DNA of 59,387 bases. Source: a virus. Its lineage: Duplodnaviria > Caudoviricetes. The stretch spans positions 1 through 59,387 of IMG/VR virus record IMGVR_UViG_3300003894_000331. One strand, 5' to 3'. Positions 1-39,800 of this stretch are shown one piece after another; position 1 is the first letter of the stretch; each line of letters starts with the position of its first letter. Both the position numbers and the translations under genes were made by a program. The notes under the pieces are model-generated. The model worked only from the letters and a program-made list of their open reading frames with translations, did not search any database and was not told the DNA's origin.

Positions 1-2649
1 ATCCCAGTACTGGAATCCTTCTTGTGGAGATGGTGCTGTTGGTGTAAGATCGAATTGTATTCCACCTAACCTTGAATAACCTTCTACATATAGTTTGTAA
101 CCTAACGCATCTGTAGCTCCTATCGCTACATCATGAGAAGTTGAGTTTGGGTACAATTCGTTTCCTGTCAAGTCCCAATATCCAATATCTCCAATTAGTT
201 CATCAATAGAACTTGATGTAACTTCTCCTGCTGTAGAATTCCAACGTAGTATTTGGTCAGAGGCTCCTGCATCGTTAGGTTGATATTTAAGAAGTAAATT
301 ACCACCCCTTGTTAAAGCCATAACTTCTGTACTTGAAACACCTCCTTTATTTGTATGCCAAGTGAACATCTCGTTTGTATCAAAGTCTCCCCCGTTAGAA
401 GTGAATCGCAGAGCATAATATCCCGTAACATTGTTAGAATCTATGTAATTGTAATAGCCACCATTGGCAGATTTCCATTTTATAGTGTGTTCCCAAGGCA
501 AAATAAGGTCTCCATTATCTAATTCTACATCCTTCATGAACTTTGCGTTCTGACTAGCATCAATGCGTACTGCTTCTACTCCTCCTGTTATTAGAGAGAG
601 GTTGTCTGCCCCTGCCCAACCTATACCTGTGTCGGTATCAGAACGGTTAGGTACAAGTGTTGGGTTTGTTGATGATGCAACTTCATTAAGAATACCACCA
701 GCTGTACCAGTTGATCCCCCAATTACACCCTGTGCCAACCTTAGTACATCCACTCCACCTATTGAAAAATACATAGTATCATCAATAGCCTCATAAATAC
801 CTGTATCACCATCTCCAAAGGCTAAACCTGTTGATAGTGAACCTACTCCACCGTTGATGTGTAGCTGGGCTAGTGGATCTATACCAATACCTACGTAACC
901 GCCATAAGGTTGTAAATTAATATTATCGGAAACTGTAGTAGATGATGCTCCTTGAATTCCTATTGTTGAATTTGTTACTTGGGTAATAAATAAAGATCGT
1001 TCTACATCCGTTCTAACCTGAACTCTGAAAGCTCTTGACCCAAATACTTCAGATAAATTACTCGCTGCCCAATTACTCCCTTTTACGTGTAAAGCTGTAG
1101 TTGGAGTAACGTTTATCCCAACCTTACCGTCATCTAATACTGTAATAGCACCAGTAGCAGCATTATTACTCATCAATGTTTGTCCACCTGTAATATCTGA
1201 CCATACAGCCAGTTCTCCGTCTACGTCTGGTGTAAAATATTCCCTTGTTACACTATCTGTAGCAAGGTTATCAAGAGTAAACTTTATCTTTCTACTATCG
1301 TTTAGGTTGTCATGTATAGTGAATATATCATCAGGAAAGTTTGTTATGGAACCGGGTGGGATATACGTTGTACCACCTTTAACAGAACTGGGCTTATCTC
1401 CTCTTAAATCAATCCATGATTGGAATACCCATGTATTTGATTGTTGCCTTACTGTTATAGCAGCTATTAAGAACCCTGTAGAACTAGCTCTTATAAACTC
1501 GGCAGGTATATCTGTTTGTGTATAACCACCCGCATCAGCTTGAGCATCTCCAAGGTTGTTATAAGTTCCTGTAGGCATATTAACCATTAAAGGAGAATAA
1601 GCACCTCCTTTATTAGCTACGCCCCATAAAACAAATGTGAAATACTTATTTGTCAATGTTCCACCTGAAGCATCAGTAGTTATATCATAAAGATTTGTTA
1701 CCTCTCTATATGCTTGTGTAAAATCATTTGTAATATGTACATCATCACCTGCAGAAGAATCCTTAGCAGTATAATTGTGTGGGTGCATCTGCATGATTAG
1801 TCCAGAAGAACACTGGACTGTTACACTCCCCGTTGTTGAGGTAATATAATTAGTTGTCCCTGCTGGGTCTACTCCTGATTGGTATATAGCCCCTAAAGCT
1901 CTTGAACGGGCAGCCATATGAGTCATATGACCCATTTCGTCTGTACCCTTATTCTCATCATTCCAGTTCTGGTTTATAAGAGCACCGCTTTCTGATTGTA
2001 CATGGGCAGCTGTTGGAACGAAGAAGTAACTAACCTTAATATGTTCTACGCCTGATGGCCAACCTGTTGTTGACTTGGTTAATAGCCCTGTAGACTTCAG
2101 GATATAAACATAATTACTCTGCGGAGAAGCCAATGTTCCCGGAGTAAGCGTTATAGTTTTAGCAGGTGTGCAATCTAATGTTTCATCACCGGTACTCCAT
2201 TGCATTGTTAAGTCACCACCAGTTTTACTCTGTAGTGACATAGTAACTGTTGTACCGTCCGAACTAACAGTAGCATTAAATGGCTCAGCAAAAGAACCGT
2301 TTACAAAATCTCTGGATAGATATATATGTTGTAAATTATCGGCATACTGTTTAGGAACTGCGTGTAAGTCTGCTGTTGGATCCCCGCCAAGTAATAACCT
2401 CTTAGCAGTATCATCCCACTTGAGCTCGTTTGTTTCTGTATGTTTCCATCTATCAGTATCCCAAAATGCCATTTGACCATTAGCCGTACCGGCCTCCAGA
2501 TCCAATCTATTAAGCATCTTGTAATAGTTGCTATCTGATATTAGTTCATATAAACCATCAGATAGGGCCATCATGCCCCTGTCTCCAGAACCGATAGACG
2601 GTCGTTTGGACGCATCTATCTCATGATATGTGAGTACGTCTAACCTCAT
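1..2649 (-). CDS. Tail fibre / receptor-binding protein, partial (open to the window edge; not in ORF track)
   Basis: ATG at 2649 right after the stop of 2651..4798. Segments translated by hand stay in one frame down to position 1: MRLDVLTYHEIDASKRP..., DGKVGINVTPTTALHVKG, GYVGIGIDPLAQLHING, GLAFGDGDTGIYEAIDD, DTDTGIGWAGADNLSLITGGVEAVRID, ...PSPQEGFQYWD. These are typical fibre beta-repeats. Confidence 0.85.
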   Translation of the reverse strand, partial: MRLDVLTYHEIDASKRPSIGSGDRGMMALSDGLYELISDSNYYKMLNRLDLEAGTANGQMAFWDTDRWKHTETNELKWDDTAKRLLLGGDPTADLHAVPKQYADNLQHIYLSRDFVNGSFAEPFNATVSSDGTTVTMSLQSKTGGDLTMQWSTGDETLDCTPAKTITLTPGTLASPQSNYVYILKSTGLLTKSTTGWPSGVEHIKVSYFFVPTAAHVQSESGALINQNWNDENKGTDEMGHMTHMAARSRALGAIYQSGVDPAGTTNYITSTTGSVTVQCSSGLIMQMHPHNYTAKDSSAGDDVHITNDFTQAYREVTNLYDITTDASGGTLTNKYFTFVLWGVANKGGAYSPLMVNMPTGTYNNLGDAQADAGGYTQTDIPAEFIRASSTGFLIAAITVRQQSNTWVFQSWIDLRGDKPSSVKGGTTYIPPGSITNFPDDIFTIHDNLNDSRKIKFTLDNLATDSVTREYFTPDVDGELAVWSDITGGQTLMSNNAATGAITVLDDGKVGINVTPTTALHVKGSNWAASNLSEVFGSRAFRVQVRTDVERSLFITQVTNSTIGIQGASSTTVSDNINLQPYGGYVGIGIDPLAQLHINGGVGSLSTGLAFGDGDTGIYEAIDDTMYFSIGGVDVLRLAQGVIGGSTGTAGGILNEVASSTNPTLVPNRSDTDTGIGWAGADNLSLITGGVEAVRIDASQNAKFMKDVELDNGDLILPWEHTIKWKSANGGYYNYIDSNNVTGYYALRFTSNGGDFDTNEMFTWHTNKGGVSSTEVMALTRGGNLLLKYQPNDAGASDQILRWNSTAGEVTSSSIDELIGDIGYWDLTGNELYPNSTSHDVAIGATDALGYKLYVEGYSRLGGIQFDLTPTAPSPQEGFQYWD

Positions 2650-2650
2650 A

Positions 2651-4798
2651 TTATGCTATATGTAAAATGTGTGCTGCTCCTGCGAATAATCTTGAACTGG
2701 TAATAACGATATCACCTGTTGTAGTATCAATAGTTTTACGAATTCCTTCCTCGATGAGTAGATCTCCGCTTGTCTCGAATATCAATACTATGAACTTACC
2801 ATTAGTTCCTAATCCATGGTTTTGCTGACCGTTACCGGTTGCTCCACTGTTTTTGAAGGTAATAGTATAAGGACCGACTCCAGCCCATCCTGTAGCTCCT
2901 ACAGCAGCAATAAAGTTAATCTGTGTGCCGAATAAAGAACCTGGAGTAGTACTGAGTAGATTTCCAACAGTAACATACTTTGTGTTATTACTGTCAGATA
3001 CATCAGCGATCGCTAGCTTATCACCTGTAGCAACTGATGTTAATTGTGTTGACAAACCATTAATGTCTAACCCGAGTGAAATGTAATTACCTCCATCAGT
3101 ATATGATATACCTCCAATAGTTCTTAGTACACCGTCAGATGAAGAAGATCCGATGTAGTCAGGAGTAGCTCCACTATCAATCTTTACTTTCCAATCCATA
3201 GCAAAGGTTGATGCTTGCCATGACCATACACCTGCACTTGTGGATGTAAGAACATAATCATTCCCCGCAGGTGGTGCAACTGGAAGAGTATAAGACTGAC
3301 TAGCAGTAGTACTTGCGCTCGGTGTAAATGATACACTGAATGCATGAGAAGTGTGAGCCATAGTTAAAGATCCTGTACGTGTAGATGCTTTACCCAATGT
3401 AACAGCATGTGCAAAGGAAGCCTGTGTTGCATCCCATGTTAACACTTGCCCCTCAAGACCAGTTATCTGACCTAGCGAACCTGTTGTTGGTGCATATACA
3501 ATTCCATACTGTGTCCAAGAACCTTTACCGGTACCTCCTCGTGATACTGATAAGTATTGTTCTGCTGTGATATCTCCTGAAGCATTTGAGTAAACAGCAT
3601 AGTTTGCTGTTAAGTCCTCCATCTTACTCCATTCAATAGCTGCTGATGAACCAATGTTAGCGTTGTTAATATAGCCCCAAGCTCCAGTACCTGCACTTGC
3701 GTACAGTACAACTTGATTAGAAGAGCCAGAAGCAGGAATGTGCTTATACCCGTTGTTAGTGCTGTGGGAGATTACGTTTCCAGTAACCTCGATAGGTAGT
3801 GTTCCAGTATAAGTACCTGTTCCTGCTATCTGAACCCATTCCGTTCCATTAAATGTCCATCTTTCATCTGAGTGTTCTGTACCGGTTTTGATCCATACAG
3901 TATCTCCATCAGTCGGGAGATCTGCTTGAGTACCGTCTTGCTGTACGGTCCATACCCATGAACCTGTAGAACCACTTGACAGATATATCTTATGATCTTG
4001 TGAGGCTGTTGAACTGTCCTTAACGAGAACTCTCATCCCGGAAGTTACAGTAACCCCATCGATTGTATTTGTTGTTGCGCCTAGAGGATTACTTCCATCA
4101 TCGTATAGTAAGTCACAAGGAGGACGATACGATACATTATCATATGTTCTGTTATCCACATAGGTCTTAATACTTTCACTACTGGCAATAGTCGTTGCAC
4201 TGGCAGTCGCCATTGTATCATCATCGATAAAACCAGTGATTGCTTGTCCTGGACCCAATGTGAATGACGCTGTTCCTTTAGCTATAGTAAAGGTGTTGGT
4301 CCCATCACTGATAGTATAATCACTCCATACCGGTGAGGATCCGTTAGACTTTAATACCTTATTAGCTGTGCCTATATTACGCTTTGCCAGAGTAGTCGAA
4401 TTTGACGCATAGAGGATGTCTCCTGCTACGTAAGACGCTATTCCTGTTCCACCATCAGTAGCAGGTATTGGAGTCGCCTGAGAGGAAACTACACCACTAC
4501 CATCGATCTTTATATATCCGGCAGAACCATTAAATTTCTTTATACCATACTTAGAGGTTGCAGTCGCTACAGACACTAACAACTCGTTTTCTGCTGCTGC
4601 TGCTGTTTTCCAAGCAAATGAGTAGTAATCATCAGTATCACCACCACGGAACTGCGGTATATTCTCATCTGAGTTATACAGGACAAAACCCTGTGTTGGA
4701 GATGCTGGACGGGATGCAGTTGCATATGCTTGCAGTACTGCTTCTTGTAGCTCATTAAAAAAGAGCCTAATCGGACTGTTAAATGGATACGGTTCCAT
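2651..4798 (-). CDS. Tail fibre-like structural protein (715 aa)
   Basis: Gly/Ser/Thr-rich; repeated GGTG motifs (IPATDGGTG, LSVSRGGTG); TIDGVTVTSGMRVLVKD module typical of phage fibres. Confidence 0.75.
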   Translation of the reverse strand: MEPYPFNSPIRLFFNELQEAVLQAYATASRPASPTQGFVLYNSDENIPQFRGGDTDDYYSFAWKTAAAAENELLVSVATATSKYGIKKFNGSAGYIKIDGSGVVSSQATPIPATDGGTGIASYVAGDILYASNSTTLAKRNIGTANKVLKSNGSSPVWSDYTISDGTNTFTIAKGTASFTLGPGQAITGFIDDDTMATASATTIASSESIKTYVDNRTYDNVSYRPPCDLLYDDGSNPLGATTNTIDGVTVTSGMRVLVKDSSTASQDHKIYLSSGSTGSWVWTVQQDGTQADLPTDGDTVWIKTGTEHSDERWTFNGTEWVQIAGTGTYTGTLPIEVTGNVISHSTNNGYKHIPASGSSNQVVLYASAGTGAWGYINNANIGSSAAIEWSKMEDLTANYAVYSNASGDITAEQYLSVSRGGTGKGSWTQYGIVYAPTTGSLGQITGLEGQVLTWDATQASFAHAVTLGKASTRTGSLTMAHTSHAFSVSFTPSASTTASQSYTLPVAPPAGNDYVLTSTSAGVWSWQASTFAMDWKVKIDSGATPDYIGSSSSDGVLRTIGGISYTDGGNYISLGLDINGLSTQLTSVATGDKLAIADVSDSNNTKYVTVGNLLSTTPGSLFGTQINFIAAVGATGWAGVGPYTITFKNSGATGNGQQNHGLGTNGKFIVLIFETSGDLLIEEGIRKTIDTTTGDIVITSSRLFAGAAHILHIA

Positions 4799-4800
4799 AG

Positions 4801-5115
4801 TTATTTAATTTTTTCCCACACAATATAACCATCTATACTAGGTGAGAGAGTTACTTTAAATGTATGATCATCAATGATTTTCTTGCGAGCTCCTACTTCA
4901 ACATTGTCTGAGTTGTAAACAGTAATGTCCAAGTACATACTTTCACATTCATGTATTACAGTGATAGTGCCTTCATTGGTAAAGTGTTGTATACCACTAC
5001 AGCCAGTAGAGCTGTCAGGATTACGAGTATCATCACTACCATCAGGACCAGACTCATCTTCTTCATAAAATAAAAAGAGGTTTTTCTTGTCAAATAATTC
5101 TATATCAAATTCCAT
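4801..5115 (-). CDS. Small structural protein sharing a beta-domain with the C-terminus of 2651..4798
   Basis: H...ITVYNSD...KIIDDHTFKVTLS...GYIV parallels NHGLG...VLIFETSG...TIDTTTGDIVITSS...GAAHIL. Confidence 0.55.
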   Translation of the reverse strand: MEFDIELFDKKNLFLFYEEDESGPDGSDDTRNPDSSTGCSGIQHFTNEGTITVIHECESMYLDITVYNSDNVEVGARKKIIDDHTFKVTLSPSIDGYIVWEKIK

Positions 5116-5117
5116 GT

Positions 5118-5579
5118 CTACTCAGTTTCGTAGCCTCCACTAAACGTAGTTTCAGACTCCTGGTTATCAAACTCGTTTTCACCAACTACCTGTCCGGCAT
5201 AAAACAGCTCATTAGGAACTGAACGGTATTCGAGTCCTGAAGGAAACCCACTCCTTTCAAAGATTAAGATTGATCTAACGTAGTAAGGCCCTGCTGACAT
5301 ATCTTTTATATCAGCCCTGCTAACCTTAATACTCACAATACCCTTGTCTTTCTTCTCAGGGTATATCTGATTGAAGCCAGTTACATTGCTCCATGCACTG
5401 TTAACGATATCAACAGCATATTTTAATTGGACCTGACGGAACTTATTATACAAAAAAATCCTGACCCCAGTTAACGGATAACCAAGATCAGAATCTAAAT
5501 CTACCACCTTACCGGTGTGCAACTGTTTAATCCTAAATATTAATTCATTGTCATGTCCTCGTACAATATTTTTAATCAT
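5118..5579 (-). CDS. BppU-N/Ig-like virion structural protein
   Basis: Pattern IVRGHDNELIFRI...GKVVDL...KGIVSIKVSRADIKDMSAGPYY; lies next to fibre genes. Confidence 0.5.
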   Translation of the reverse strand: MIKNIVRGHDNELIFRIKQLHTGKVVDLDSDLGYPLTGVRIFLYNKFRQVQLKYAVDIVNSAWSNVTGFNQIYPEKKDKGIVSIKVSRADIKDMSAGPYYVRSILIFERSGFPSGLEYRSVPNELFYAGQVVGENEFDNQESETTFSGGYETE

Positions 5580-6103
5580 TAGTCAACTGTTTCAAACAGT
5601 CTAGGCTTGTATTCATTATCAGAACGTTTGTCGAACTTACTTGAGTTACTCGCCAACTGTTTAAGTTCCTTGCCAAGCTTCAAGAGCTCCTGAGCACGTT
5701 TCAAAGCTGTGAACTTCTCATCCTTGTTCTCAAGATTCATCTTGATATTCTTAAGCATTTTGATGTAGGCATCAGCATCCTTCTGCCATGACATGTACAA
5801 AGCCCACTCAGGACTGTACATCGTCTCTATATATAGATTCTCAAACTCTTCGTATACAATACTATCGAGAACCTCTTGAACATCATAGCCATTCAAATAA
5901 GCCTGCTGAATACGGATAGCTTTCTTATTTCTCGGAAGATCATGGTACAAAGAAACCCCTTCAGGCGAATAACTATAGTATAACAACACTAAGCCTGCTT
6001 TTACAAACTTCTTGTCCTTATGCGATAAGAACTGCGCCACAACAGGCTGATTCTCCGCACCGTCAACTATAGACACCTTACCCCTATTTGTCTTTGCTAA
6101 CAT
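5579..6103 (-). CDS. Helical protein, possible terminase small subunit-like
   Basis: 174 aa with C-terminal coiled coil; follows the GroES-like gene at the start of the late block. Function is inferred only. Confidence 0.35.
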   Translation of the reverse strand: MLAKTNRGKVSIVDGAENQPVVAQFLSHKDKKFVKAGLVLLYYSYSPEGVSLYHDLPRNKKAIRIQQAYLNGYDVQEVLDSIVYEEFENLYIETMYSPEWALYMSWQKDADAYIKMLKNIKMNLENKDEKFTALKRAQELLKLGKELKQLASNSSKFDKRSDNEYKPRLFETVD

Positions 6104-6470
6104 CCTTAACTATAACGTCATTTTTATTAAGCTGTCTTAAAACATCACCCTTGATGTTTATCATAGTGCCTCCAAATACTCGCACATAAACTCTGTCACC
6201 TACTTCATAGCCATCAACTCCACTAGCAACGATAACACCTTGTACCGGCCAATCCTTAAAATACCCCAATGATGTGTACTTCTCCTCAAGATCACCCCCA
6301 CGCATCGCAGTTAAGAAAGCCGTGTACAACTCCCTCTTACCTTTAATAATAGAACTCTCATGCTGAAAGCTATGAAAGTCATCCATCCTTGCTAACATAA
6401 TATCATCATTTACCTCGATAATACCACTGTAGTCCATGATAGGTTCCTGTTCTTTTTGATTAGATTCCAT
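6084..6470 (-). CDS. GroES-like co-chaperonin
   Basis: VQGVIVASG...YEVGDRVYV...INIKGDVLRQLNKNDVIV matches the GroES pattern. Start moved to ATG 6470, just after the upstream stop at 6472. Confidence 0.6.
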   Translation of the reverse strand: MESNQKEQEPIMDYSGIIEVNDDIMLARMDDFHSFQHESSIIKGKRELYTAFLTAMRGGDLEEKYTSLGYFKDWPVQGVIVASGVDGYEVGDRVYVRVFGGTMINIKGDVLRQLNKNDVIVKDVSKDK

Positions 6471-6471
6471 A

Positions 6472-6747
6472 TTAATTAAATATTGATTGTATCTGTTCCT
6501 GGCGTATAACAAGGTCCACCTTATGCTCCCTCTGTAAATCATTAATCATAATGTTTACACTCTCCTCATAACCATCCTCAATACGGTAACGTCCGTTCTT
6601 AGGATCCAACCGTCCATAGTTCTGTATAAGCGCATTATACCTGTTAACGTACTTAATGTACCCCCCTTGCATAGGAATACTAAGAGACATCTTATTATTC
6701 AGCATCAAATCCTGAATACCTATAATTTGTTTACCCTCTCTGACCAT
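6472..6747 (-). CDS. Hypothetical protein
   Basis: 91-aa ORF in a tightly packed minus-strand run. Confidence 0.6.
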   Translation of the reverse strand: MVREGKQIIGIQDLMLNNKMSLSIPMQGGYIKYVNRYNALIQNYGRLDPKNGRYRIEDGYEESVNIMINDLQREHKVDLVIRQEQIQSIFN

Positions 6748-7052
6748 GACATTAAAGCTTGATTACCTTGATCTACGATATCGGCAGGCACTAACTCATT
6801 AATTCCATAACGAGCCTTGATCTGGATAGTATTACCCAACTTATCTACTCCATTCCAGTGACACATTACCCCCACTACTATCTTCTTACGCTTTTGCTCA
6901 CCATTCGAAGTACCCGTGATAGGAACACCCTTCTTTATTAAATACTCTACATAAATGTTACGCTTATCATCCCTGACAATATCATCAGTGTGATATACAC
7001 GTAAACCACTACGTATCCAATATTTACTATGGAGATTGTCTGTTCCCACCAC
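6720..7052 (-). CDS. Hypothetical protein (SH3-like beta pattern)
   Basis: 110-aa ORF; GLRVYH...VMCHW...NELV pattern. Confidence 0.6.
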   Translation of the reverse strand: MVGTDNLHSKYWIRSGLRVYHTDDIVRDDKRNIYVEYLIKKGVPITGTSNGEQKRKKIVVGVMCHWNGVDKLGNTIQIKARYGINELVPADIVDQGNQALMSWSERVNKL

Positions 7053-7218
7053 GCTTACTCTTTATATAACGACCTTTACCGATTATGTATTCGTCAGTCT
7101 CATGAGTCTCTTGCATAGCAGCCAACAGAACCTTTTTATCTACCCCCAAACTCTCTACATCCTTCTTATCACGGAAGATCCGGAAAATCTGTCTCCTCTT
7201 TTCATACACAACAACCAT
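7027..7218 (-). CDS. Hypothetical protein, first gene of the leftward block
   Basis: Start placed at ATG 7218 (MVVVYEKRRQIF); the longer track version runs into low-complexity intergenic DNA. Confidence 0.5.
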   Translation of the reverse strand: MVVVYEKRRQIFRIFRDKKDVESLGVDKKVLLAAMQETHETDEYIIGKGRYIKSKRGGNRQSP

Positions 7219-7565
7219 AACAACTAACTTATAACACTTCAGCAAATATAATACAAAATCCCCCCTTTTGATACCAAAACATAAAAAATATTTATCCCAA
7301 TCAACCGCAGCCCACAAATACATATATAAGACAAATACTAAAATACCCCCTCCCTCATAATAACATAAAGGCCCTCCTGAACATACCCAGTACCCCTCAA
7401 ATCAACGATCCCTAATCAAATAGACATAACCCCCAAAACCATAAAAAAATACTGTGTGTGTACAGAGAGGAGGTATCCTACCCCAACCTCCCCCGGTGTT
7501 CGATATTATCAAAATTGGTTTCAGCCAGAACCGGTTTTGTTTGTTTAATCTTAAATACTTTAATT

Positions 7566-8252: not shown

Positions 8253-8383
8253 GAAAGCTCCTTTATAAATACACAGACTTTATGATTAAGATATCTGTAT
8301 GGTATGAGATAACAATCTGCTCCATCATCGGTGTCGGATTAGCCATCCTTATCGTCAATTATTGCATTAACTACCATAAATAA
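8249..8383 (+). CDS. Small membrane protein, 44 aa (not in ORF track)
   Basis: ATGA overlap with the upstream stop; MRKLLYKYTDFMIKISVWYEITICSIIGVGLAILIVNYCINYHK has one hydrophobic helix. Confidence 0.6.
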   Translation: MRKLLYKYTDFMIKISVWYEITICSIIGVGLAILIVNYCINYHK

Positions 8384-8394
8384 CCCCTATTTTG

Positions 8395-8442
8395 GTGTTT
8401 TGCCGTCAAAACAAACCATTTTTAAGTGTTTTGCCGTCAAAA
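8395..8442. repeat. Two exact 17-bp direct repeats GTGTTTTGCCGTCAAAA, 31-bp period
   Basis: Copies at 8395-8411 and 8426-8442; each contains the dyad TTTTG-N4-CAAAA. Confidence 0.9.
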
Positions 8443-10697: not shown

Positions 10698-10743
10698 AAT
10701 AATTTGTGCTATCTTAGCACCCATTGAGTAATTAAATTGGTTG

Positions 10744-10769
10744 AGCCTCGCATCCTGCGGGGCTTTTTT
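10744..10769 (+). terminator. Intrinsic terminator
   Basis: AGCCTCGCA-TCC-TGCGGGGCT followed by a T run. Confidence 0.8.
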
Positions 10770-10772
10770 ATT

Positions 10773-10857
10773 GGCTGTATGGCGAAACTGGTAGACGCTC
10801 TGGACTTAAAATCCAGTGAACATTGAGTTCGTGTGAGTTCGAGTCTCACTATAGCCA
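10773..10857 (+). tRNA. trnL: tRNA-Leu (anticodon TAA), CCA not encoded
   Basis: Acceptor GGCTGTA/TATAGCC-A, D arm GGCGAAACTGGTAGACGC, anticodon arm CTGGA-CTTAAAA-TCCAG, long variable arm, T arm GTGAG-TTCGAGT-CTCAC. Confidence 0.95.
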
Positions 10858-10966
10858 CGAATACGAATACCGCATGAAGTAGAGTAGTGTGATGAGTAGT
10901 ATTATGACTGTTGTGAATAGCGCAATGAAACCACTCAGGAGTACCAAGCCTGAGACAATAACTATT

Positions 10967-12752: not shown

Positions 12753-13037
12753 ATGGGACGAATATTATTATACTGCTTACTTGTGCTTGTATTTATTGGT
12801 CATTGTGAACAACAAGAAAGCATGGTACGCAATACAGAAGAATTAATAGAACAAAACGAGCAATTAATTAATTATGTAATTAAAATGTATAAGAATGACT
12901 CTGCTGCCAGATACCGGGATTCTTTAAACTTTCAACATTTAAAGGAATGTTCCTGGATCTCATCAGATCATATCGAACTACGTAATAATTATGTTTATGT
13001 CAAACCTTTAACAAATTATTCAAATGACAATAATTGA
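12753..13037 (+). CDS. N-terminal TM/signal plus coiled-coil protein
   Basis: Start moved to ATG 12753 (MGRILLYCLLVLVFIG), downstream of the terminator. Confidence 0.65.
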   Translation: MGRILLYCLLVLVFIGHCEQQESMVRNTEELIEQNEQLINYVIKMYKNDSAARYRDSLNFQHLKECSWISSDHIELRNNYVYVKPLTNYSNDNN

Positions 13038-13410
13038 ATTGATTTTATTTGGAGCGTTAGTGCTTATAGGCATATCATTCATACTGTATGCTCATATAGC
13101 GACTAAACGCAACCGCAGTAGTAATATAATGCTGACTGCAAAAACAAAAGAGTACAACACTCTTAATCAAAAGTATCTAGATCTCATGGAGAATTCTCAT
13201 GAACAAGAAAAACAGATACAGACATTTAAAAACCGTAACCTTAAACTCTCACAAGACAAAGAGAGACTTGAGGAGAATAACCGTATACTACGTGCTAAAG
13301 TGGTGAAGTATCGTCCATATAGCAGAACTTGCCCTCATTGCAAGAGATTCCTGAAAAAGTCTCATGACGGAGATAGTTGTTATCATTGTAATAAACCTTT
13401 AAACTCATAA
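13024..13410 (+). CDS. TM plus coiled-coil protein with C-terminal CxxC...CxxC zinc ribbon
   Basis: MTIIELILFGALVLIGISFILYAH; CPHC...CYHC. Confidence 0.75.
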   Translation: MTIIELILFGALVLIGISFILYAHIATKRNRSSNIMLTAKTKEYNTLNQKYLDLMENSHEQEKQIQTFKNRNLKLSQDKERLEENNRILRAKVVKYRPYSRTCPHCKRFLKKSHDGDSCYHCNKPLNS

Positions 13411-13413
13411 GCC

Positions 13414-13722
13414 ATGGAATTTGTAATAGGAACACTAATATGTGTAATCATTATTCTTATTGGAATGAACATCCATGAGAGTAGTATGAGAAAACGACAA
13501 GACAAAGAAGCAAAAGCTGCTATCAATAATCTTGTTGATGAGATATCTCTCAAGATGAAAACCATCGAAGAGTTGAACAAAGAGGTTCTTGAGTGTAACA
13601 GGAACAATAAAATTTTACTGGACCTAACAGATAAGCTGAAACGACAGCTTGCTAAACATAAGCCTAAAAAGGATCCAAAGACCGGTAAATTTGTCAAAAA
13701 GAAACATCCTACTAAGGGATAA
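13414..13722 (+). CDS. TM plus coiled-coil protein with basic tail
   Basis: MEFVIGTLICVIIILIGM; tail KDPKTGKFVKK. Confidence 0.75.
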   Translation: MEFVIGTLICVIIILIGMNIHESSMRKRQDKEAKAAINNLVDEISLKMKTIEELNKEVLECNRNNKILLDLTDKLKRQLAKHKPKKDPKTGKFVKKKHPTKG

Positions 13723-13767
13723 AGAGCCATTTATATGGTTATTTCTATTGTTTTCATTTATGTGTAG

Positions 13768-13796
13768 AGGAGGATCGCTCGGTCCTCCTTTTTTTT
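13768..13796 (+). terminator. Intrinsic terminator
   Basis: AGGAGGATC-GCTC-GGTCCTCCT followed by a T run. Confidence 0.85.
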
Positions 13797-13864
13797 AAAC
13801 TCAGAACTTATGCCAGGAATTGAAATGTTTAGTGACGCATGGTTTGATAAAGCAGACGAATATT

Positions 13865-14188
13865 ATGATCTTAAAAGAGATAGTGCTGAAGTCTGGAGAA
13901 CTATCAGAACTCGTAAGAAATGTAAAGAACACTTTAGTAGACGAATTAAAGATAGGCCAGATAGCACCAACCGTAAACGTGGAGGAGCTCGCCCTCAAGA
14001 TAGTAAATAACATAGCGAGTAAGACATTAAGAGAGTTTCATGAGTCGGATCCTGTAAGGGTACACTTACATGGTAGATTTGTGGACGCAACATTTGTGAA
14101 ATACACAGATGACGGTAAATGTGTGATAAGAGTAAATGGATTAAATAACATTGTACCTCAAATATTCATTGATTTTAAGGATGAATAA
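13865..14188 (+). CDS. Hypothetical protein
   Basis: Likely ATG 13865 (MILKEIVLKSG); the track gives a TTG start at 13820. Confidence 0.6.
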   Translation: MILKEIVLKSGELSELVRNVKNTLVDELKIGQIAPTVNVEELALKIVNNIASKTLREFHESDPVRVHLHGRFVDATFVKYTDDGKCVIRVNGLNNIVPQIFIDFKDE

Positions 14189-14213
14189 AAAAAGCCTCCC
14201 ACGAATGAGAGGC
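14187..14213 (-). terminator. Intrinsic terminator on the minus strand, inside a plus-strand gene cluster
   Basis: Minus strand reads GCCTCTCA-TTCG-TGGGAGGC-TTTTTTT; the G-U wobble and UUCG loop work only in this orientation. Confidence 0.8.
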
Positions 14214-14257
14214 AATGACTTGTGTTTGGAGCCTAAACGAGAGATAGGTCAATTCCG
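14187..14257 (-). ncRNA. Candidate ~70-nt antisense small RNA
   Basis: Lies between minus-strand TATGTTTG (14261-14268) and the minus-strand terminator; three blocks are complementary to 14373-14435. Confidence 0.55.
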
Positions 14258-14260
14258 ATA

Positions 14261-14289
14261 CAAACATATAATAATTTTTTATAAGTTTG
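14261..14289. promoter_or_regulatory. Back-to-back divergent Bacteroidota-type -7 elements
   Basis: TATGTTTG on minus (14261-14268) and TAAGTTTG on plus (14282-14289), separated by a 13-bp A/T-only spacer. Confidence 0.6.
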
Positions 14290-14371
14290 CCATTCAATGA
14301 ATATTATTTCACACATACAAGTTGTTGACACCCTCTGTACAACTATGGGATTGACTATCCTTAAAACAAAA

Positions 14372-14458
14372 ATGGAGGCTAAACGAGGAATATCTGAAAG
14401 GTTAGGAGCAATGACCCACAAGCGTCAACTCCGATTAAAAGGCATGCACGTAGTATAA
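14372..14458 (+). CDS. Putative leader peptide, 28 aa (in-frame ATGs also at 14297 and 14345)
   Basis: TTAAAACAAAA leader, then MEAKRGISERLGAMTHKRQLRLKGMHVV. Confidence 0.4.
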   Translation: MEAKRGISERLGAMTHKRQLRLKGMHVV

Positions 14459-14486
14459 CATACGCAGTGTAATAAAAGACCCTTTC

Positions 14487-14510
14487 CGGACCCGCCATGT
14501 CCGTTTATTT
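14487..14510 (+). terminator. Weak terminator / attenuator-like hairpin
   Basis: CGGAC-CCGCCAT-GTCCG-TTTATTT, 28 nt after the leader ORF stop. Confidence 0.4.
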
Positions 14511-14538
14511 CTCACGGTAAATAGTCGTTAAATAATTA

Positions 14539-14595
14539 CCTAAATAGTTGGTGCTATAGTATATATAATCTATAGTAACATGCCAACTAAATAGG
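14539..14595. repeat. Imperfect inverted repeat just upstream of the RadC-like gene
   Basis: TAGTTGG/CCAACTA outer and TGCTATAG/CTATAGTA inner arms around an AT loop. Confidence 0.6.
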
Positions 14596-14619
14596 CTTGA
14601 ACTGTAAAAACGAGAAAAA

Positions 14620-15075
14620 ATGAAAAAATACAAATCAAAGATCACAAGGTATAAACTGGTAAAAGAACCAGTTGACATTAACAAAGTTAAAATAAGCTCT
14701 TCTGAAGATGCAATGATTTACATGAAGGACTTCTTTGGAAGTGACATCGATATTCATGAAAGTTTCTTCTTACTGCTAATGAATCGTGCTAACATAACTA
14801 CTGGATATGTTAAAATATCTCAAGGTGGTACAGCTGGAACTGTAGTGGATCCTATACTTGTTTCTAAGTACGCAATAGAGTCTTTAGCAAGCTCTGTTAT
14901 ACTTGCTCATAATCACCCTTCAGGTAATATCAAACCTAGTGAAAATGACATTAACCTGACTAAGAAAATTGTTCAAGGATTAAAGATGTTCGATATTCAT
15001 GTATTGGACCATTTAATAATTCCTGGAAATGATGTTGAATATTATTTTTCATTTGCCGATGAAGGCTTAATTTAA
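14620..15075 (+). CDS. radC: RadC-like JAB/MPN domain protein
   Basis: HESFFLLLMNRAN...ISQGG...VDP...AHNHPSGNIKPSENDINLT...VLDHLII; intact E...HxH...S..D motif, JAB domain only. Confidence 0.92.
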   Translation: MKKYKSKITRYKLVKEPVDINKVKISSSEDAMIYMKDFFGSDIDIHESFFLLLMNRANITTGYVKISQGGTAGTVVDPILVSKYAIESLASSVILAHNHPSGNIKPSENDINLTKKIVQGLKMFDIHVLDHLIIPGNDVEYYFSFADEGLI

Positions 15076-15080
15076 ATTAT

Positions 15081-15659
15081 ATGAACGAACTAAGAAAAGA
15101 TGTAAAGGAACTGTTATGGAATGAGTTTAACTACTCAACTTATAGGAGTTTAGAAGATGAAGCATTTGATAAATTATGTAAAAAAGTTGCAAGAGATATA
15201 GTTAATAAATGTGGGGAAAAACTCCAACAGCAAAGTAATGATGGTGAAGTGAGGATATGCACAGGGTGCGGACGTTTAACAACTGATATAGCATTACCAT
15301 TAACAGCCTTATCCTGTTGCCCTGATAGTAGATATGTAAGTATTGAAAAATTTAGGGATGAATGGAGGGAGGAAAATAAAAAAAGATACGATAAAATGCA
15401 ATCCACCCCCAAACCAACGGGAGTTAGTAAGGATGTTGCAAAACAGTACGCTGAATTTTGTGTATTATGTGATAGGGATAATTTACCATTACTTGATTTG
15501 GACAGTTTTATAAAACAATCCCAATCACAACCAAAGCAAGGGGAGTGTTGTGATAACCCAAACATTCAAGTAGGCAGACGCTCGAGAAAAGAATACTGTA
15601 TTAATTGTAATACGTTATTACCCCAATCACCCGAATCAGAGAAAGGGTATGAGGGGTAA
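15081..15659 (+). CDS. Modular Cys-rich hypothetical protein
   Basis: CTGC...CCP, CVLC and CCD...CINC clusters separated by Q/S/P linkers. Confidence 0.65.
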   Translation: MNELRKDVKELLWNEFNYSTYRSLEDEAFDKLCKKVARDIVNKCGEKLQQQSNDGEVRICTGCGRLTTDIALPLTALSCCPDSRYVSIEKFRDEWREENKKRYDKMQSTPKPTGVSKDVAKQYAEFCVLCDRDNLPLLDLDSFIKQSQSQPKQGECCDNPNIQVGRRSRKEYCINCNTLLPQSPESEKGYEG

Positions 15660-15698
15660 CGTATGATAATGTGAATAGTAATTAAATTTATTTGAGCG

Positions 15699-15968
15699 AT
15701 GGAAATACAAGAATTAAAGAAAAGCGACAACAGTAAAGAAACTGTAAAATACCTTGCCGATGTAGAATGGCTTTGGTTAGGAAACACAAAAGACTATAAA
15801 GAGGTGAAAGATTTTGTAGCATTAGTTTGTAGAGATGTAACAAATGCAAGCTGTATAAATGAGATTTGTATAAATGATGTATTACAAGCACTTAGACAAC
15901 ATGGATATGAAGTTGTGGCATTATGTGACCACGATAATATTAATGCCTGTGATAGTGATGATGATTGA
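15699..15968 (+). CDS. Hypothetical protein
   Basis: 89-aa ORF. Confidence 0.6.
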   Translation: MEIQELKKSDNSKETVKYLADVEWLWLGNTKDYKEVKDFVALVCRDVTNASCINEICINDVLQALRQHGYEVVALCDHDNINACDSDDD

Positions 15969-16155
15969 GGATGAGAAAGTAACTCACCCTACCCTATTCC
16001 CCGGTCAATATCTTTACGTCAGAGATATGTATATCTATGATGAGAATGATTTTGAAGTGGGACACATGCTTGACCCCATGTTTGGTGAACAATCAAATGA
16101 GTGGGATACTAATTGGACTATTTATAAAAAAGAAATGGAGGTTGTAAATGCCTAA
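15961..16155 (+). CDS. Small hypothetical protein
   Basis: Start moved to ATG 15961 (MIEDEKVTHP), overlapping the previous stop. Confidence 0.6.
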   Translation: MIEDEKVTHPTLFPGQYLYVRDMYIYDENDFEVGHMLDPMFGEQSNEWDTNWTIYKKEMEVVNA

Positions 16156-26367: not shown

Positions 26368-27184
26368 GTATATGTTTACCAAGAAAGGCCAAAAGGTTGC
26401 CATTCTTGAAGATTTAAAAGACGGTCAGTTCTTAGTTCAAGAAGTCTATATGGACGATAATGACAAAGAAGTACTTGCCGGAGATAAGTGGGTTGCAAGA
26501 GATCTGCATGATACTCCTCCTCTTACTTATCAGGAAAAACAAATGGAGAAACACCGCATTGAACTCAGCCAAATGGAACAAGAGGTTGAAAATGAAAAAA
26601 GGAACTTGCGTAATGTTAAAAGCACTTTAAGACAGCAAAGAAGAGCCTTTGCATCACATCTGACAAGTGATTTTGAAAAAGTAAAAGAACACATTTATAA
26701 TGTTCTCACTGGAGAATATAAATATGCAGTACAAGACGATAGAATAATACCTATTGACGAGTTTCTATCAAAATCACATCATGGAGAGATGATAAAGCTT
26801 GTTAGCTTGTTTGGAAGCTCTGAAGGAGATTTGGAGTACAGACTATTCAGATACAGTGACGGCAGTGGAGGAGGAATGCCTTTCACCTTGCACACTACTT
26901 TAAAGTCTGCAAAAGAGAGAGTCCTTAAATACATGAAAAATAGTATATCTAATAGAGTAAATTATTCATATAATGAAGTTCTCTATGCACGTAATCATGA
27001 TATTCCTTTGGACAGAGAAAAGTTAAACAAGCTAATTACTAAACTTGTTAAAACAGCAGGTGAGCATGCTAACAGCGCTAAACATTACAGAAAGCGTGAA
27101 GTCGCTTGTTGGAGACAAATAAGATACATTGAAAAATACTATCCAGATGAAGAGTTCAAAAATAAGAGACAAGAATCAGTTTAA
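26354..27184 (+). CDS. Hypothetical coiled-coil phage protein
   Basis: Likely ATG 26354; KLVSLFGSSEGDLEYRL..YSDGSG motif. Confidence 0.7.
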   Translation: MKIYKYMFTKKGQKVAILEDLKDGQFLVQEVYMDDNDKEVLAGDKWVARDLHDTPPLTYQEKQMEKHRIELSQMEQEVENEKRNLRNVKSTLRQQRRAFASHLTSDFEKVKEHIYNVLTGEYKYAVQDDRIIPIDEFLSKSHHGEMIKLVSLFGSSEGDLEYRLFRYSDGSGGGMPFTLHTTLKSAKERVLKYMKNSISNRVNYSYNEVLYARNHDIPLDREKLNKLITKLVKTAGEHANSAKHYRKREVACWRQIRYIEKYYPDEEFKNKRQESV

Positions 27185-28855: not shown

Positions 28856-28866
28856 AAAACGAGATA

Positions 28867-29436
28867 ATGGTTAATTTAACAATTTACACAGTAAGCGACA
28901 ACGTAGGAGGTTCTCCTGGAGACAGCACCGACTATATGTTCCTTGAGAAACAGGGAGCTATTGACAAGTTCAATGAAATAGTAAAAAATGCTTTGGAAGT
29001 AGATCTCCCTACAAAGAAGTATGATACTTATGAAGAGTCTGAAGAAGAGGATAAGATAGTAATTCTAAAAGATATCCTCGGAGATAAATATGATGACAAC
29101 TGGCGGGAAATAGAGTTCAGCCCTGAAAAATATTTCTATTACGACCATAATCATACGGGTTGGGGTGTTTTATCAATTGTAGAGCATTATATGTGCCCTC
29201 GATGTAAAGCATCTCATAATACGTGTACTTGTATCGAAGATATGCAAGATGGAGACCTTGTATGGATAGAAGATGATCCTCATGTTCACAGATTCGTATT
29301 CAAAGAAGAATGCGAAGAGATGAAACAATGCAACGGACATACTGTTGCTGATATCAAAAGAATGATGGAAAGTAATCCTGGTGCGATAAGAATAATGCCA
29401 CGTGAAATCACAAAAACCGATCAAGATGAAGTATAA
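28867..29436 (+). CDS. Acidic hypothetical protein with Cys cluster
   Basis: CPRC...CTC. Confidence 0.7.
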   Translation: MVNLTIYTVSDNVGGSPGDSTDYMFLEKQGAIDKFNEIVKNALEVDLPTKKYDTYEESEEEDKIVILKDILGDKYDDNWREIEFSPEKYFYYDHNHTGWGVLSIVEHYMCPRCKASHNTCTCIEDMQDGDLVWIEDDPHVHRFVFKEECEEMKQCNGHTVADIKRMMESNPGAIRIMPREITKTDQDEV

Positions 29437-33739: not shown

Positions 33740-33770
33740 GAAAAGGGGCCTTTCGGGGCCCCTTTCTTTT
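33738..33770. terminator. Bidirectional intrinsic terminator at the convergence of early and late blocks
   Basis: AAGAAAAGGGGCCT-TTCG-GGGCCCCTTTCTTTT. Confidence 0.9.
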
Positions 33771-36833: not shown

Positions 36834-39800
36834 TTATTCTTTAGTTTCGTTAATAATATCATTTCCTAATTTCACAGTGCTACCAAGTGGTAATACATGT
36901 GATAAATTCTTTTCAGGTTCTCTGAGCATAATCACATTGAATACACTCTTTGCCATATTCACAACCGGTAAAGCTGTAAACATACTCATCATATAACCTG
37001 GAGATGTGAGAATAGCAGTCTGCATACCCTCAGTCATAGCTCTCCATATTCTTCTGTAACGAAGAGCCCAATTATCTTCATCTTCACTTTCAGCCAGTGA
37101 TGATAAACCGGTGTAAGCAAAGTAAGCAGTTGCAATAAATAGTAAGTCAAGTGAGGCCCTTACCAAATTGTACTTCTCAAGCTCTGACATATTTTGCCAT
37201 TGCCAGATGGATCTCGTTTGGTTAACCCACTCATACTTACTTAGAACATTAGCCACAAACGGAGTAGACTTAAGTAGTATCTTACTTGCAGTAACCCAAC
37301 TACCTTCTTTTTCGTATGTCTGCCATGCTCTTACAAAGTTTCCTTCCTCATCTTCACGAATAACCTTTTTACCTCCTTCAAACGCTTCAATCTTAGATCC
37401 AAGACGTTCACCAATCTTAGTTGTCATAAACTTCTTGAACTGTAGAACAAGATTTGCAAAGAAATAACTGTCACCGTTTATCGATGCTTCTTTGTTATAC
37501 ACACCAACCACGAACTGCGAACCAACATGTTCCAATCTCCTTTGATCCTGGACATCATATGCTCTCACAGGAGCAAGTTTATCCTTTTGTTGATCCATTA
37601 CCCTCTCATCCTGAGAAAGTGATTCTACAAGCCAATTACGCAGCTCTGCTTGCTTTTTATCACTCTGGTAGTTATTGATACGTGTATCCTTAGATGCATT
37701 ATATACAACTTCACCTTTTTCATTAAGTGAATGTGCATCCCATGTACCATCATGCTTCATTTGAGCAACAGCAGCCATGGCTCGCATAGATAAGTCAGTC
37801 CACCTGTTCATAAAGTGAGCTGCATTACTATGCCATGGACTTCTAAAGGTTACATCATAACGAGGATTTACCAGATAATCCCATCTATCGGATTCAATCA
37901 CCTGATAGTACTCCATTATCTTACGCACCTTTTTGAAGTTGACTGTATATTCCTTAACAGCACTGGCCCAGTTCTTAAAGTTAAACAGATCATAAGGATT
38001 AGCTCCTGATATGTTAACCGCAACTGAGTTCATTATAGATTCAAATGTGTTTGCTGTAAGAGACGTAACAGCTACCGGTATACTAAGAGCAACTCCGTTG
38101 AATGTAGTAATACGAATCATCATTCTACCAAATCCCTCGATGTTATCCGAAAGCTTACTGTCTTTAAAGTGCTTTTGATGTCTACCAAGAACATTCTTTT
38201 CAAACATTACTCTCAAGTGCTTCGCTACTCTACCTTTGTCAGTATCACTGAACATCTTAACTGTATCAGCAGCAATCTTAGCCTCACGGTAAGCAGGAAG
38301 TAAACGGTCCTCAAGAATAGGCTTACTTATACTATCCATAGCCATGTACTTAGCTATATTAAAGAGGTTCTTTGTGTATATAGTATTATTTTTAATGTCC
38401 TTAACAATAATGTTACCATCAACATCTTCGAGCCCTATGTTCGCCAGACGTTTGTCATCACCAAATGCAGAAGTTCCTTCACCACCTACCTGATTCAAGA
38501 ATACAGAGTTTACTGATTCATCTAATGTAGTATGGTCATCAACAAGAACATCCTGAAATACCTGTTCAGGATTAGAGGTCTGATATGAGAACTTTCTCAT
38601 AGCCTGAAGTACTTTACCCTCCTTGAGATATGTGGATGTGCCTTTCCTTAATAATGGAATACGTCCTTTTTCCCAATGATCATTATAATACTTCATGGTC
38701 ATACTTTCAAGCTTCTTCTCATTGAATGAGCCATCTTTAAATACTGCAAAGCTGTACTTAAACTTAGCACGGATAAGGTTTATCATATACTCCTCAACCT
38801 TTTCAGCAATAAACTGGCTGTACTCAAACTCTTCCTGACTTAAAGTACCATTACCAATAGCCTGTTTGGTTAAAGGATCATTGATATCATGGTGTATTCT
38901 GAATGTATTTACACTCTCTCCATCGATCTCCTCATAAATAAAGAACTTGTCAAAGTAGTTTTCACTTGCATCAACCATTCTCTCCACTATCTTCTGAGAA
39001 GGATTCTTCTTATTATGCATCTTCATTATCTTTTCAGTCTCATCTGAAAGGATCTGTTGTTCCTTTGCAAACAAACCACTGATAATTCCGAGCTCATTCC
39101 TCATACTGTTGTAGAATGACTGAATAATCCTATTGCCTTGATCTGCCTGATTCATTAAGAATGAACGGTAGATGCCTGGTTCTTTAATATTCTTCTCTGA
39201 CACATCAATCATTGTATTAAATTCGAACAATGCATTGGAGATAGTCTGATATTCATTTTCATCAACAAGATGCTTTGTGATATCACTCGACATTAAGCGA
39301 TCTAAGCTATGTTTATACAGCCTTAAGCTCTCAAGCAACTTCTTCACATTTCCTCTTCCTGAGACAACGTCAGATAGCTGAGAAACGATTCCTTTGATAC
39401 TTGGATCATTCGCTCTTTTGTAATTGCTATCAGAGAACATACTCAATAACACTTCGAAGTAATCAGGAGAATACTTTTCATACCTGAACACATCAGGACT
39501 AGTTATTAGACCTCTTAGCTGTGGTGATAGAGATTCTTTGAACTCTTCATTTCCTGATAGGGCCTGAAGATTCTTCAACGCTTGGATAAGGTTTACCTGA
39601 GTGTAAGTAATGCTACCAGATACATCATCCATCTCACTCAGTCCTATTGCACGAATATTTACCCTGTCACCTGCAATCTGCTTCATTTGCATTACAGTCA
39701 TAGCCATTTTGAGCTTCTCAACGTTTGCAAGAGTAGCTTTCATGTTAACTCCTAAAGCAGATCCTTCAACATCACTCATATAATTTGATGATATAAGTCC

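Follow-up and report, generated by a model that had tools for sequence, protein, structure and literature searches.

A candidate antisense RNA unit in the spacer ahead of a phage replication operon

Several described systems pair a short antisense RNA with a message encoded close by, and they provide the natural comparison for the locus treated here. This is a 431-bp spacer (14189-14619) in the virus record IMGVR_UViG_3300003894_000331 (Duplodnaviria; Caudoviricetes), located between small plus-strand open reading frames (ORFs) that end at 14188 and a radC-like gene. The record, a linear sequence of 59,387 bp with an estimated completeness of 62%, was analyzed over its whole length, and we refer to it as the window. 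A preliminary description had proposed that a divergent small RNA (sRNA) acts on the leader of a small ORF and so gates the operon that follows. Our reading is more modest: the spacer probably holds a small non-coding minus-strand transcription unit that ends at an intrinsic terminator at 14187-14213.

In the divergent type I loci of Escherichia coli (tisB/istR-1, shoB/ohsC and zor/orz as well as dinQ/agrB), the toxins are small and hydrophobic (TisB has 29 amino acids [aa]), the complementarity of IstR-1 is 21 nt, and the antitoxins, as this source describes them, pair in a long 5′ untranslated region (UTR) rather than across the start site (PMC4147584). Measured against that account, the spacer would be similar in that a candidate sRNA gene is divergent from a small ORF, with ∼20 nt of imperfect complementarity via a shared short sequence. 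However, the match here (17/20 plus 14/17 nt, binding z about −4, between two predicted RNAs) lies over the start codon of a 28-codon ORF rather than in a 5′ UTR, and the locus stands ahead of a phage replication operon; searches found neither homology nor a multi-copy family. The ORF product is basic, as the preliminary description had it, and hydrophilic (pI 11.6, GRAVY −0.56, 7 K+R, best 15-aa hydropathy window −0.43), so the likeness to tisB/istR as a toxin locus does not hold. By analogy, the locus would work most like a divergent tisB/istR-1-type pair, yet one without the hydrophobic toxin that defines such pairs.

Temperate phages themselves supply two further comparisons. The OOP RNA of lambda and the sar RNA of P22 both end at an intrinsic terminator. 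OOP is cis-encoded, 77 nt long, and leads to RNase III cleavage of the cII mRNA, and sar inhibits anti-repression (PMC5415839). The putative RNA of the spacer would be of the same kind, i.e., a short RNA running against the flow of a one-directional phage operon and acting on the sense mRNA. OOP and sar are, however, fully complementary to a defined coding target, whereas the perfect partner here would be only an untranslated read-through tail, the match at the ORF start being partial and duplicated. There is also no sequence or structure similarity to them, and no Rfam match at threshold.

In P1 c4 and P4 CI, the downstream genes depend on a small ORF ahead of them that is itself under antisense-RNA control. 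These RNAs are processed from the transcript of their own targets, their complementarity is an inverted repeat on one DNA strand, and Rfam holds a model for c4. The comparison with c4 and CI that had been drawn for the spacer breaks down: the blocks here are direct repeats, so that opposite-strand transcription would be needed in place of the same-strand geometry, and again nothing matches Rfam at threshold. In addition, the stop codon of the small ORF is 161 nt before radC, a gap that excludes translational coupling of the two.

For the marine Cellulophaga phage phi14:2, a preprint (10.1101/2020.03.07.982082) describes long non-coding intergenic regions that are highly transcribed, early promoters without a recognisable motif, and −35/−10-like middle promoters used by the host RNA polymerase. 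Our record, too, is marine, its DNA having been found only in marine metagenome runs, and the intergenic RNAs of phi14:2, a phage of Bacteroidota, compare with the non-coding RNA predicted here. The phi14:2 RNAs differ in being co-directional with the neighboring genes and in their map position.

The reverse-facing terminator and the duplicated block

The strongest element of the locus is the terminator, which we consider genuine. On the minus strand, a hairpin at 14194-14213 (8 pairs, 5 of them G-C, with a TTCG loop) is followed by seven T at 14193-14187, thus a G+C-rich stem, a short loop and a U run on the transcribed strand, as is usual for intrinsic terminators. When a site had to combine a stem of 8 or more contiguous pairs and 5 or more G-C pairs with a 3-8 nt loop and a T-rich tail, a strict definition, the window had seven strong strand-sites at six loci (7903, 10743, 12707 and 13766 on the plus strand, 14194 on the minus strand, and 33741-33766 on both), whereas 20 shuffles of the whole window averaged 0.35. 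All six loci fall within non-coding DNA. The hairpin folds with −11.4 kcal/mol in its minus-strand form and with −7.5 kcal/mol in its plus-strand form, a preference of 3.9 kcal/mol due to a G.U pair whose plus-strand counterpart is a C.A mismatch. The four plus terminators likewise contain G.U pairs, by which each gains 3.0-5.4 kcal/mol on its own strand relative to the other, and the bias at 14194-14213 is the mirror image of theirs. It is the only strong terminator antisense to its own gene block, and the small genes ending at 14188 have no plus-strand terminator of their own. The UUCG terminator claimed for the minus strand at this place is real, and all of the elements listed in the preliminary description were located where it put them.

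Given the strength of this terminator, its strand asymmetry and its non-coding context, minus-strand transcription probably ends near 14187. The minus-strand ORFs of the spacer have codon scores of −0.03 to −0.11, resembling non-coding DNA rather than genes (0.10-0.27). Because none of them looks coding, a non-coding RNA is the most economical reading, and we assign a probability of roughly 0.6-0.65 to the existence of such an RNA. (A minus-strand small protein or type I toxin was considered and rejected on the same codon scores.) The body of the candidate RNA would be 14214..14256 on the minus strand. Its 5′ end would be at ∼14256 if the TATGTTTG box within a 29-nt palindrome is the promoter, or further upstream, up to ∼14551, if a sigma-70-like site within a 57-nt palindrome is used.

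The RNA would act antisense on plus-strand transcripts that cross the spacer. Its pairing would be perfect with read-through from the small genes ending at 14188 and imperfect with the second copy of a 38-nt segment from its own template, which lies 146 nt downstream and covers the start codon of the 28-codon ORF. We hold the antisense role tentatively, at somewhat less than even odds, and regard functional pairing at the start of the small ORF as doubtful; these gradings, and the figure given above, are our judgment and were not computed. What the sequence itself shows is the terminator with its strand bias, the duplication and the pairing energy; production of the RNA, its start and any action on plus transcripts are inferred. 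If the reading is correct, a marine phage that lacks known relatives would have an antisense RNA at the boundary between a small-gene block and its replication operon, with a partial target born of a local duplication, as in divergent type I loci but toxin-free. It would add one more to the few known phage antisense regulators, in a lineage without known expression control. For now this is a hypothesis about a single locus, and its practical value is to define a target for strand-specific transcript mapping.

The duplication consists of two blocks, neither with a strand of its own. Block A (14227-14246 vs 14373-14392) is identical at 17/20 positions and at 14/15 in its core, and of 300 dinucleotide-shuffled spacers, 1.7% reach its ungapped score of 14. 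In block C (14248-14264 vs 14424-14440), 14/17 positions agree, 11/12 in the core, and as the second-best pair it scores 11 (equalled in 4.7% of 300 spacer shuffles). The blocks are collinear in both copies, with a gap of 1 nt in copy 1 and 31 nt in copy 2, and the combined chain score of 25 was reached in 0/400 shuffles, the highest of which scored 23. What was duplicated is a single 38-nt segment: 14227-14264 recurs at 14373-14440, where 30 additional nt separate the two halves. Three complementary blocks had been proposed; A and C stand, whereas block B (8/8) is at chance level, given that three further pairs in the spacer also score 8. Once B is dropped, the reservation that the block order differs (B-A-C vs A-B-C) disappears with it.

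The 38-nt repeat has no further copy in the window, and neither block C nor the palindrome half-site has other copies there beyond chance. A and C are direct repeats, and no opposite-strand copy of block A exists at up to two mismatches. Reading the shared frame by eye, we found that all seven differences between the copies change an amino acid, and thus conservation is at the nucleotide level rather than the protein level. Paralogous small proteins were rejected as an explanation on this ground. Outside these blocks, one half of the spacer aligns with the other no better than shuffles do (92/500 score as well); tandem duplication of the whole leader was also rejected, the significance being due to A and C alone. 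Four runs contain the record, none of them an RNA run; contigs from these four marine DNA runs, compared over 13000-16000, showed no differences and no joints, with the spacer partly uncovered in three of the four.

It should also be noted that AAACGAGA, the 8-mer core of block A, occurs 3-4 nt before the starts of radC (at 14608-14615) and of the gene at 28867 (at 28857-28864), these being two of its four plus-strand occurrences. In the marine run from which the record may stem, the two assembly-graph contigs that cover the spacer meet by a 31-nt overlap at 14457-14487, between the stop of the small ORF and a weak hairpin; this may be an assembly branch, i.e., a population variant.

The predicted pairing was evaluated by cofolding a 71-nt minus RNA (14257->14187) with the plus leader 14293-14510. 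The binding energy is −18.5 kcal/mol, compared with −7.1 ± 2.9 kcal/mol for shuffled bodies carrying the same terminator, and 1/300 of these was as good; the duplexfold value was matched by 0/300 shuffles. Where the candidate RNA faces the block A core, it is predicted to be unpaired with a probability of ∼0.9, and in a scan of both strands in 120-nt windows (2964 in all), no site other than the RNA's own locus scored better than the leader (−33.9). A wider sRNA regulon acting on gene starts was rejected, as 57 start regions average −11.1 against a background of −12.6.

A number of results weigh against the proposed RNA and its pairing. The pairing statistics mainly restate the repeat and are not independent of it, and both core mismatches are non-wobble. 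Target specificity is not supported, as two or three unrelated sites in the window pair about equally well: the 120-nt sites 26761-26880 (−33.7) and 45721-45840 (−33.0) are nearly tied with the leader, and when the windows are cut to 30 nt, the site in block A (−26.1) ranks only third or fourth, behind sites such as 26806-26835 (−27.9) and 45801-45830 (−26.3). The 71-nt RNA itself folds with −17.2 kcal/mol (z −1.82), and 10/200 shuffles fold as well. Both of the back-to-back TAnnTTTG boxes are present as described, but their standing as promoters is poor: the motif has 50 matches in the window vs 60.2 ± 6.8 expected, 4/50 are intergenic where the non-coding share is roughly 8%, and in the plus-gene block we count 10 on plus and 15 on minus, with no strand bias. 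Sigma-70-like matches are no more frequent (16 vs 20.6 expected locally, and 56 vs 76 in the first 20 kb). Rfam at gathering scores returned only a tRNA in the window; at a relaxed E-value, 14100-14700 gave seven matches, all far below gathering (the best, RprA, 34.1 vs 70 bits). Finally, judging by our searches for relatives, the locus offers no conservation to lean on.

Promoter candidates and palindromes

The AT-rich 29-nt palindrome at 14261..14289 (no strand; 12/14 pairs) has the two TAnnTTTG boxes as its arms. In Flavobacterium psychrophilum, this box of the Bacteroidota sigma-A is placed at −12 to −5 (PMC9723704). If the boxes of the spacer are used, transcripts would start at ∼14256 on minus and ∼14294 on plus, near the ends expected in the preliminary description. 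By eye, there is no TTG 17-22 nt upstream of either box. Palindromes of this quality number two in the window vs 1.5 in shuffles.

The 57-nt palindrome at 14539..14595 (no strand) lies just before radC, and its fold is strong on both strands (z −3.55 on plus, −3.64 on minus), confirming the long inverted repeat that had been reported there. On the minus strand it contains the sigma-70-like match TTGGCA, 17 nt, TATACT (10/12), the second-best in the first 20 kb, and by our own reading a weaker mirror match exists on plus. Given the promoter types of phi14:2, either type could apply at the spacer. As a plus-strand RNA, the entire spacer would be unusually structured (z −3.85, 0/100 shuffles equal), with much of this signal coming from the 57-nt palindrome.

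Competing explanations

In the original model, transcription from the TATGTTTG box yields an sRNA of ∼70 nt that keeps the 28-codon leader ORF (14372..14458, plus; its ATG overlaps block A copy 2, and a longer reading of the frame, starting at 14297, has 53 codons) from being translated. Termination at 14487-14510 would be set in this way and would in turn control how much transcription reaches the 19-kb radC operon, as a switch between the lytic and the carrier state. The geometry and the complementarity are as described, with the start codon inside the duplex, and the statement that the radC block has no strong internal terminator is correct for the plus strand between 14620 and 33741. The proposed attenuator is the difficulty. 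The plus-strand hairpin (14487-14503, with a T-rich tail to 14510) has five pairs, a 7-nt loop and −5.1 kcal/mol, whereas the strong plus terminators of this phage reach −14 to −17 kcal/mol; it begins 29 nt past the ORF stop, a distance that puts it beyond reach of a terminating ribosome; the fold of the leader (14366-14515) is unremarkable (z −0.90); and we identified no alternative set of pairings such as a leader-peptide attenuator would have. As a leader peptide, too, the ORF is uncertain, because its codon score of 0.04 is ambiguous (coding frames 0.25 ± 0.11, open non-coding frames −0.13 ± 0.09) and the 53-codon form found only itself in a HMMER search of 1.84 billion representatives. 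The 57-nt palindrome is downstream of the hairpin and could hold the operon's own promoter, bypassing the attenuator; if radC does have a promoter there, the attenuation model falls. With the promoter motif at chance level as well, and nothing in the window that bears on a carrier state, attenuation and the switch have no support beyond geometry, and we regard this model as improbable. Less improbable, though still distinctly unlikely, is control at the DNA level, with the 38-nt copies and the two palindromes as binding sites of a phage or host protein that govern the promoter or promoters of the replication operon, the reverse terminator merely shielding the upstream genes from divergent transcription. 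The clustering of repeats within 431 bp (the A+C chain, both palindromes and a perfect 12-bp inverted repeat) speaks for it, as do the conservation of the copies as nucleotides and not as protein and the confinement of the 38-nt repeat, within the window, to the spacer. On the other hand, block spacing differs by 30 nt between the copies, the blocks have no internal dyad symmetry by eye, and no helix-turn-helix (HTH), repressor or recombinase domain was found in 54 ORF products (Pfam) or in 37 (PHROGs), with 62% of the genome in hand.

Alternatively, the spacer might be evolutionary debris, i.e., a neutrally decaying local duplication beside an orphan or insulator terminator, with complementarity that has no function. 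We consider this unlikely as well, if slightly less so. It would fit with halves that cannot be aligned apart from A and C, with block B at chance, with equally good pairing sites arising by chance elsewhere in the window, and with the nearest phage that has both radC and helicase, in which there is no such spacer. It fits less well with a terminator that retains a perfect strand-specific design, and blocks of 84% identity beside unalignable flanks are better explained by constraint on the blocks than by uniform decay. A very improbable option concerns the perfect 12-bp inverted repeat 14161-14172 / 14294-14305 (spanning 14161..14305, no strand), between whose arms lie exactly copy 1, the 29-nt palindrome and the terminator: the 121 bp in between (14173-14293) would be an inverted or invertible segment. 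When flipped, the terminator would face plus, 19 nt after a TAG closing a 20-codon extension of the upstream ORF, and A and C would become same-strand inverted repeats. The reading frame is indeed kept across the repeat, and the chance of such a repeat at this very spot is roughly 0.016; window-wide, however, there is one against 1.6 expected, and the repeat is probably notable for its position only. Moreover, the flipped extension has a non-coding-like codon score (−0.04), Pfam scans of the window ORFs found no recombinase, and the block duplication would be left unexplained. Fainter still is the prospect that the 121-bp cassette works as a DNA-inversion switch, flipping the terminator together with the antisense-RNA template, so that one orientation would end the upstream unit on plus and the present one would permit read-through and release the pairing minus RNA; in that case, an RNA gate before the replication operon would be set by flipping DNA. 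A minus-strand non-coding RNA ending at 14187-14213 stays our preferred reading.

Genomic setting and search for relatives

Genes of the window run leftward over 1-7323, rightward over 7458-33479 and leftward again from 33790. The two-way terminator at 33741-33766 (10 pairs, 6 G-C, T-rich tails on both strands) is located where the plus and minus blocks converge. The radC-like gene (14620..15075, plus; phrog_10276, E 8.3e-26) is the first of an 18.9-kb plus-strand block that also encodes a DnaB-type helicase, an SbcC-like ATPase, a sliding-clamp homologue and several DNA methyltransferases. GC skew tracks the gene layout, and a replication origin at the spacer was rejected because the cumulative minimum is at ∼8-9 kb instead. 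At that minimum, within a 489-bp non-coding stretch, 8378-8439 holds two tandem 31-nt units (81% alike, with an identical 17-nt core), and this position makes them candidate replication-origin iterons or a regulator site.

Searches for relatives of the locus returned little. A blastn search of 13400-15100 against 50,697 phage records gave no match. RadC has 269 relatives in viral contigs (best 61% aa) and 587 in metagenome contigs (best 59%), but the spacer is shared by 0/80 loci kept from the former, and spacer homology is absent from the 191 loci of the latter. The upstream 122-aa ORF has one weak match (24%) and in a word search found only itself, the downstream 192-aa protein and the helicase found no relatives, and each of four proteins around the spacer is a cluster of one among ∼15 billion proteins. 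The block A 15-mer has 30 single matches in viral contigs, of which the three that we opened are unrelated coding or other contexts, and the gapped A..C pattern has 0 matches. In the nearest, still distant, phage with radC (61% aa) and helicase (31% aa), radC starts 19 nt behind a 399-aa gene, with no spacer before it.

Just upstream of the spacer, the plus-strand ORFs 13810-14010 and 13865-14188 overlap by ∼145 nt in different frames, and with codon scores of 0.24 and 0.21 both look like genes, so the gene structure is ambiguous there; a public protein collection has a 107-aa form of the ORF upstream of the spacer. Further upstream, weak matches of the plus-strand ORFs 12753-13037, 13024-13410 and 13414-13722 indicate a possible lysis cassette (Rz-like spanin phrog_739, E 2e-4; holin-like Holin_BhlA, E 1.7e-3, and DUF6568, E 2.3e-5). 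The ORF past the 12707 terminator probably starts with the ATG at 12753 and has a hydrophobic N-terminus. A tRNA-Leu (anticodon TAA) at 10773-10858 is directly behind the strong plus-strand terminator 10743-10765.

On the minus strand, 36834-56486 is one ORF of 6550 aa. Like the large minus-strand ORFs in general, it has no match in PHROGs; its only recognisable domain is of the SF1 helicase type (AAA_30 / Viral_helicase1, residues ∼1381-1561), and the C-terminal part has a sub-threshold hint of patatin. The crAss-like label of the preliminary description found no supporting PHROG or Pfam match. The giant-ORF layout and the mostly SD-less starts (Shine-Dalgarno [SD]-like motifs at 11/59 gene starts) are the sole hints of such a phage. 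Scarce SD motifs would also be compatible with a Bacteroidota host, without proving one.

Incidentally, the top intergenic-enriched 7-mer of the window is TAGACAT. A looser 9-mer version has no overall enrichment there. Four of the six plus-strand copies of the 7-mer are intergenic (7421, 8623, 9082 and 10515), where intergenic DNA makes up 4% of the sequence. These four are all within the small-gene region at 7.4-10.5 kb, and TAGACAT could be a promoter or regulatory motif.

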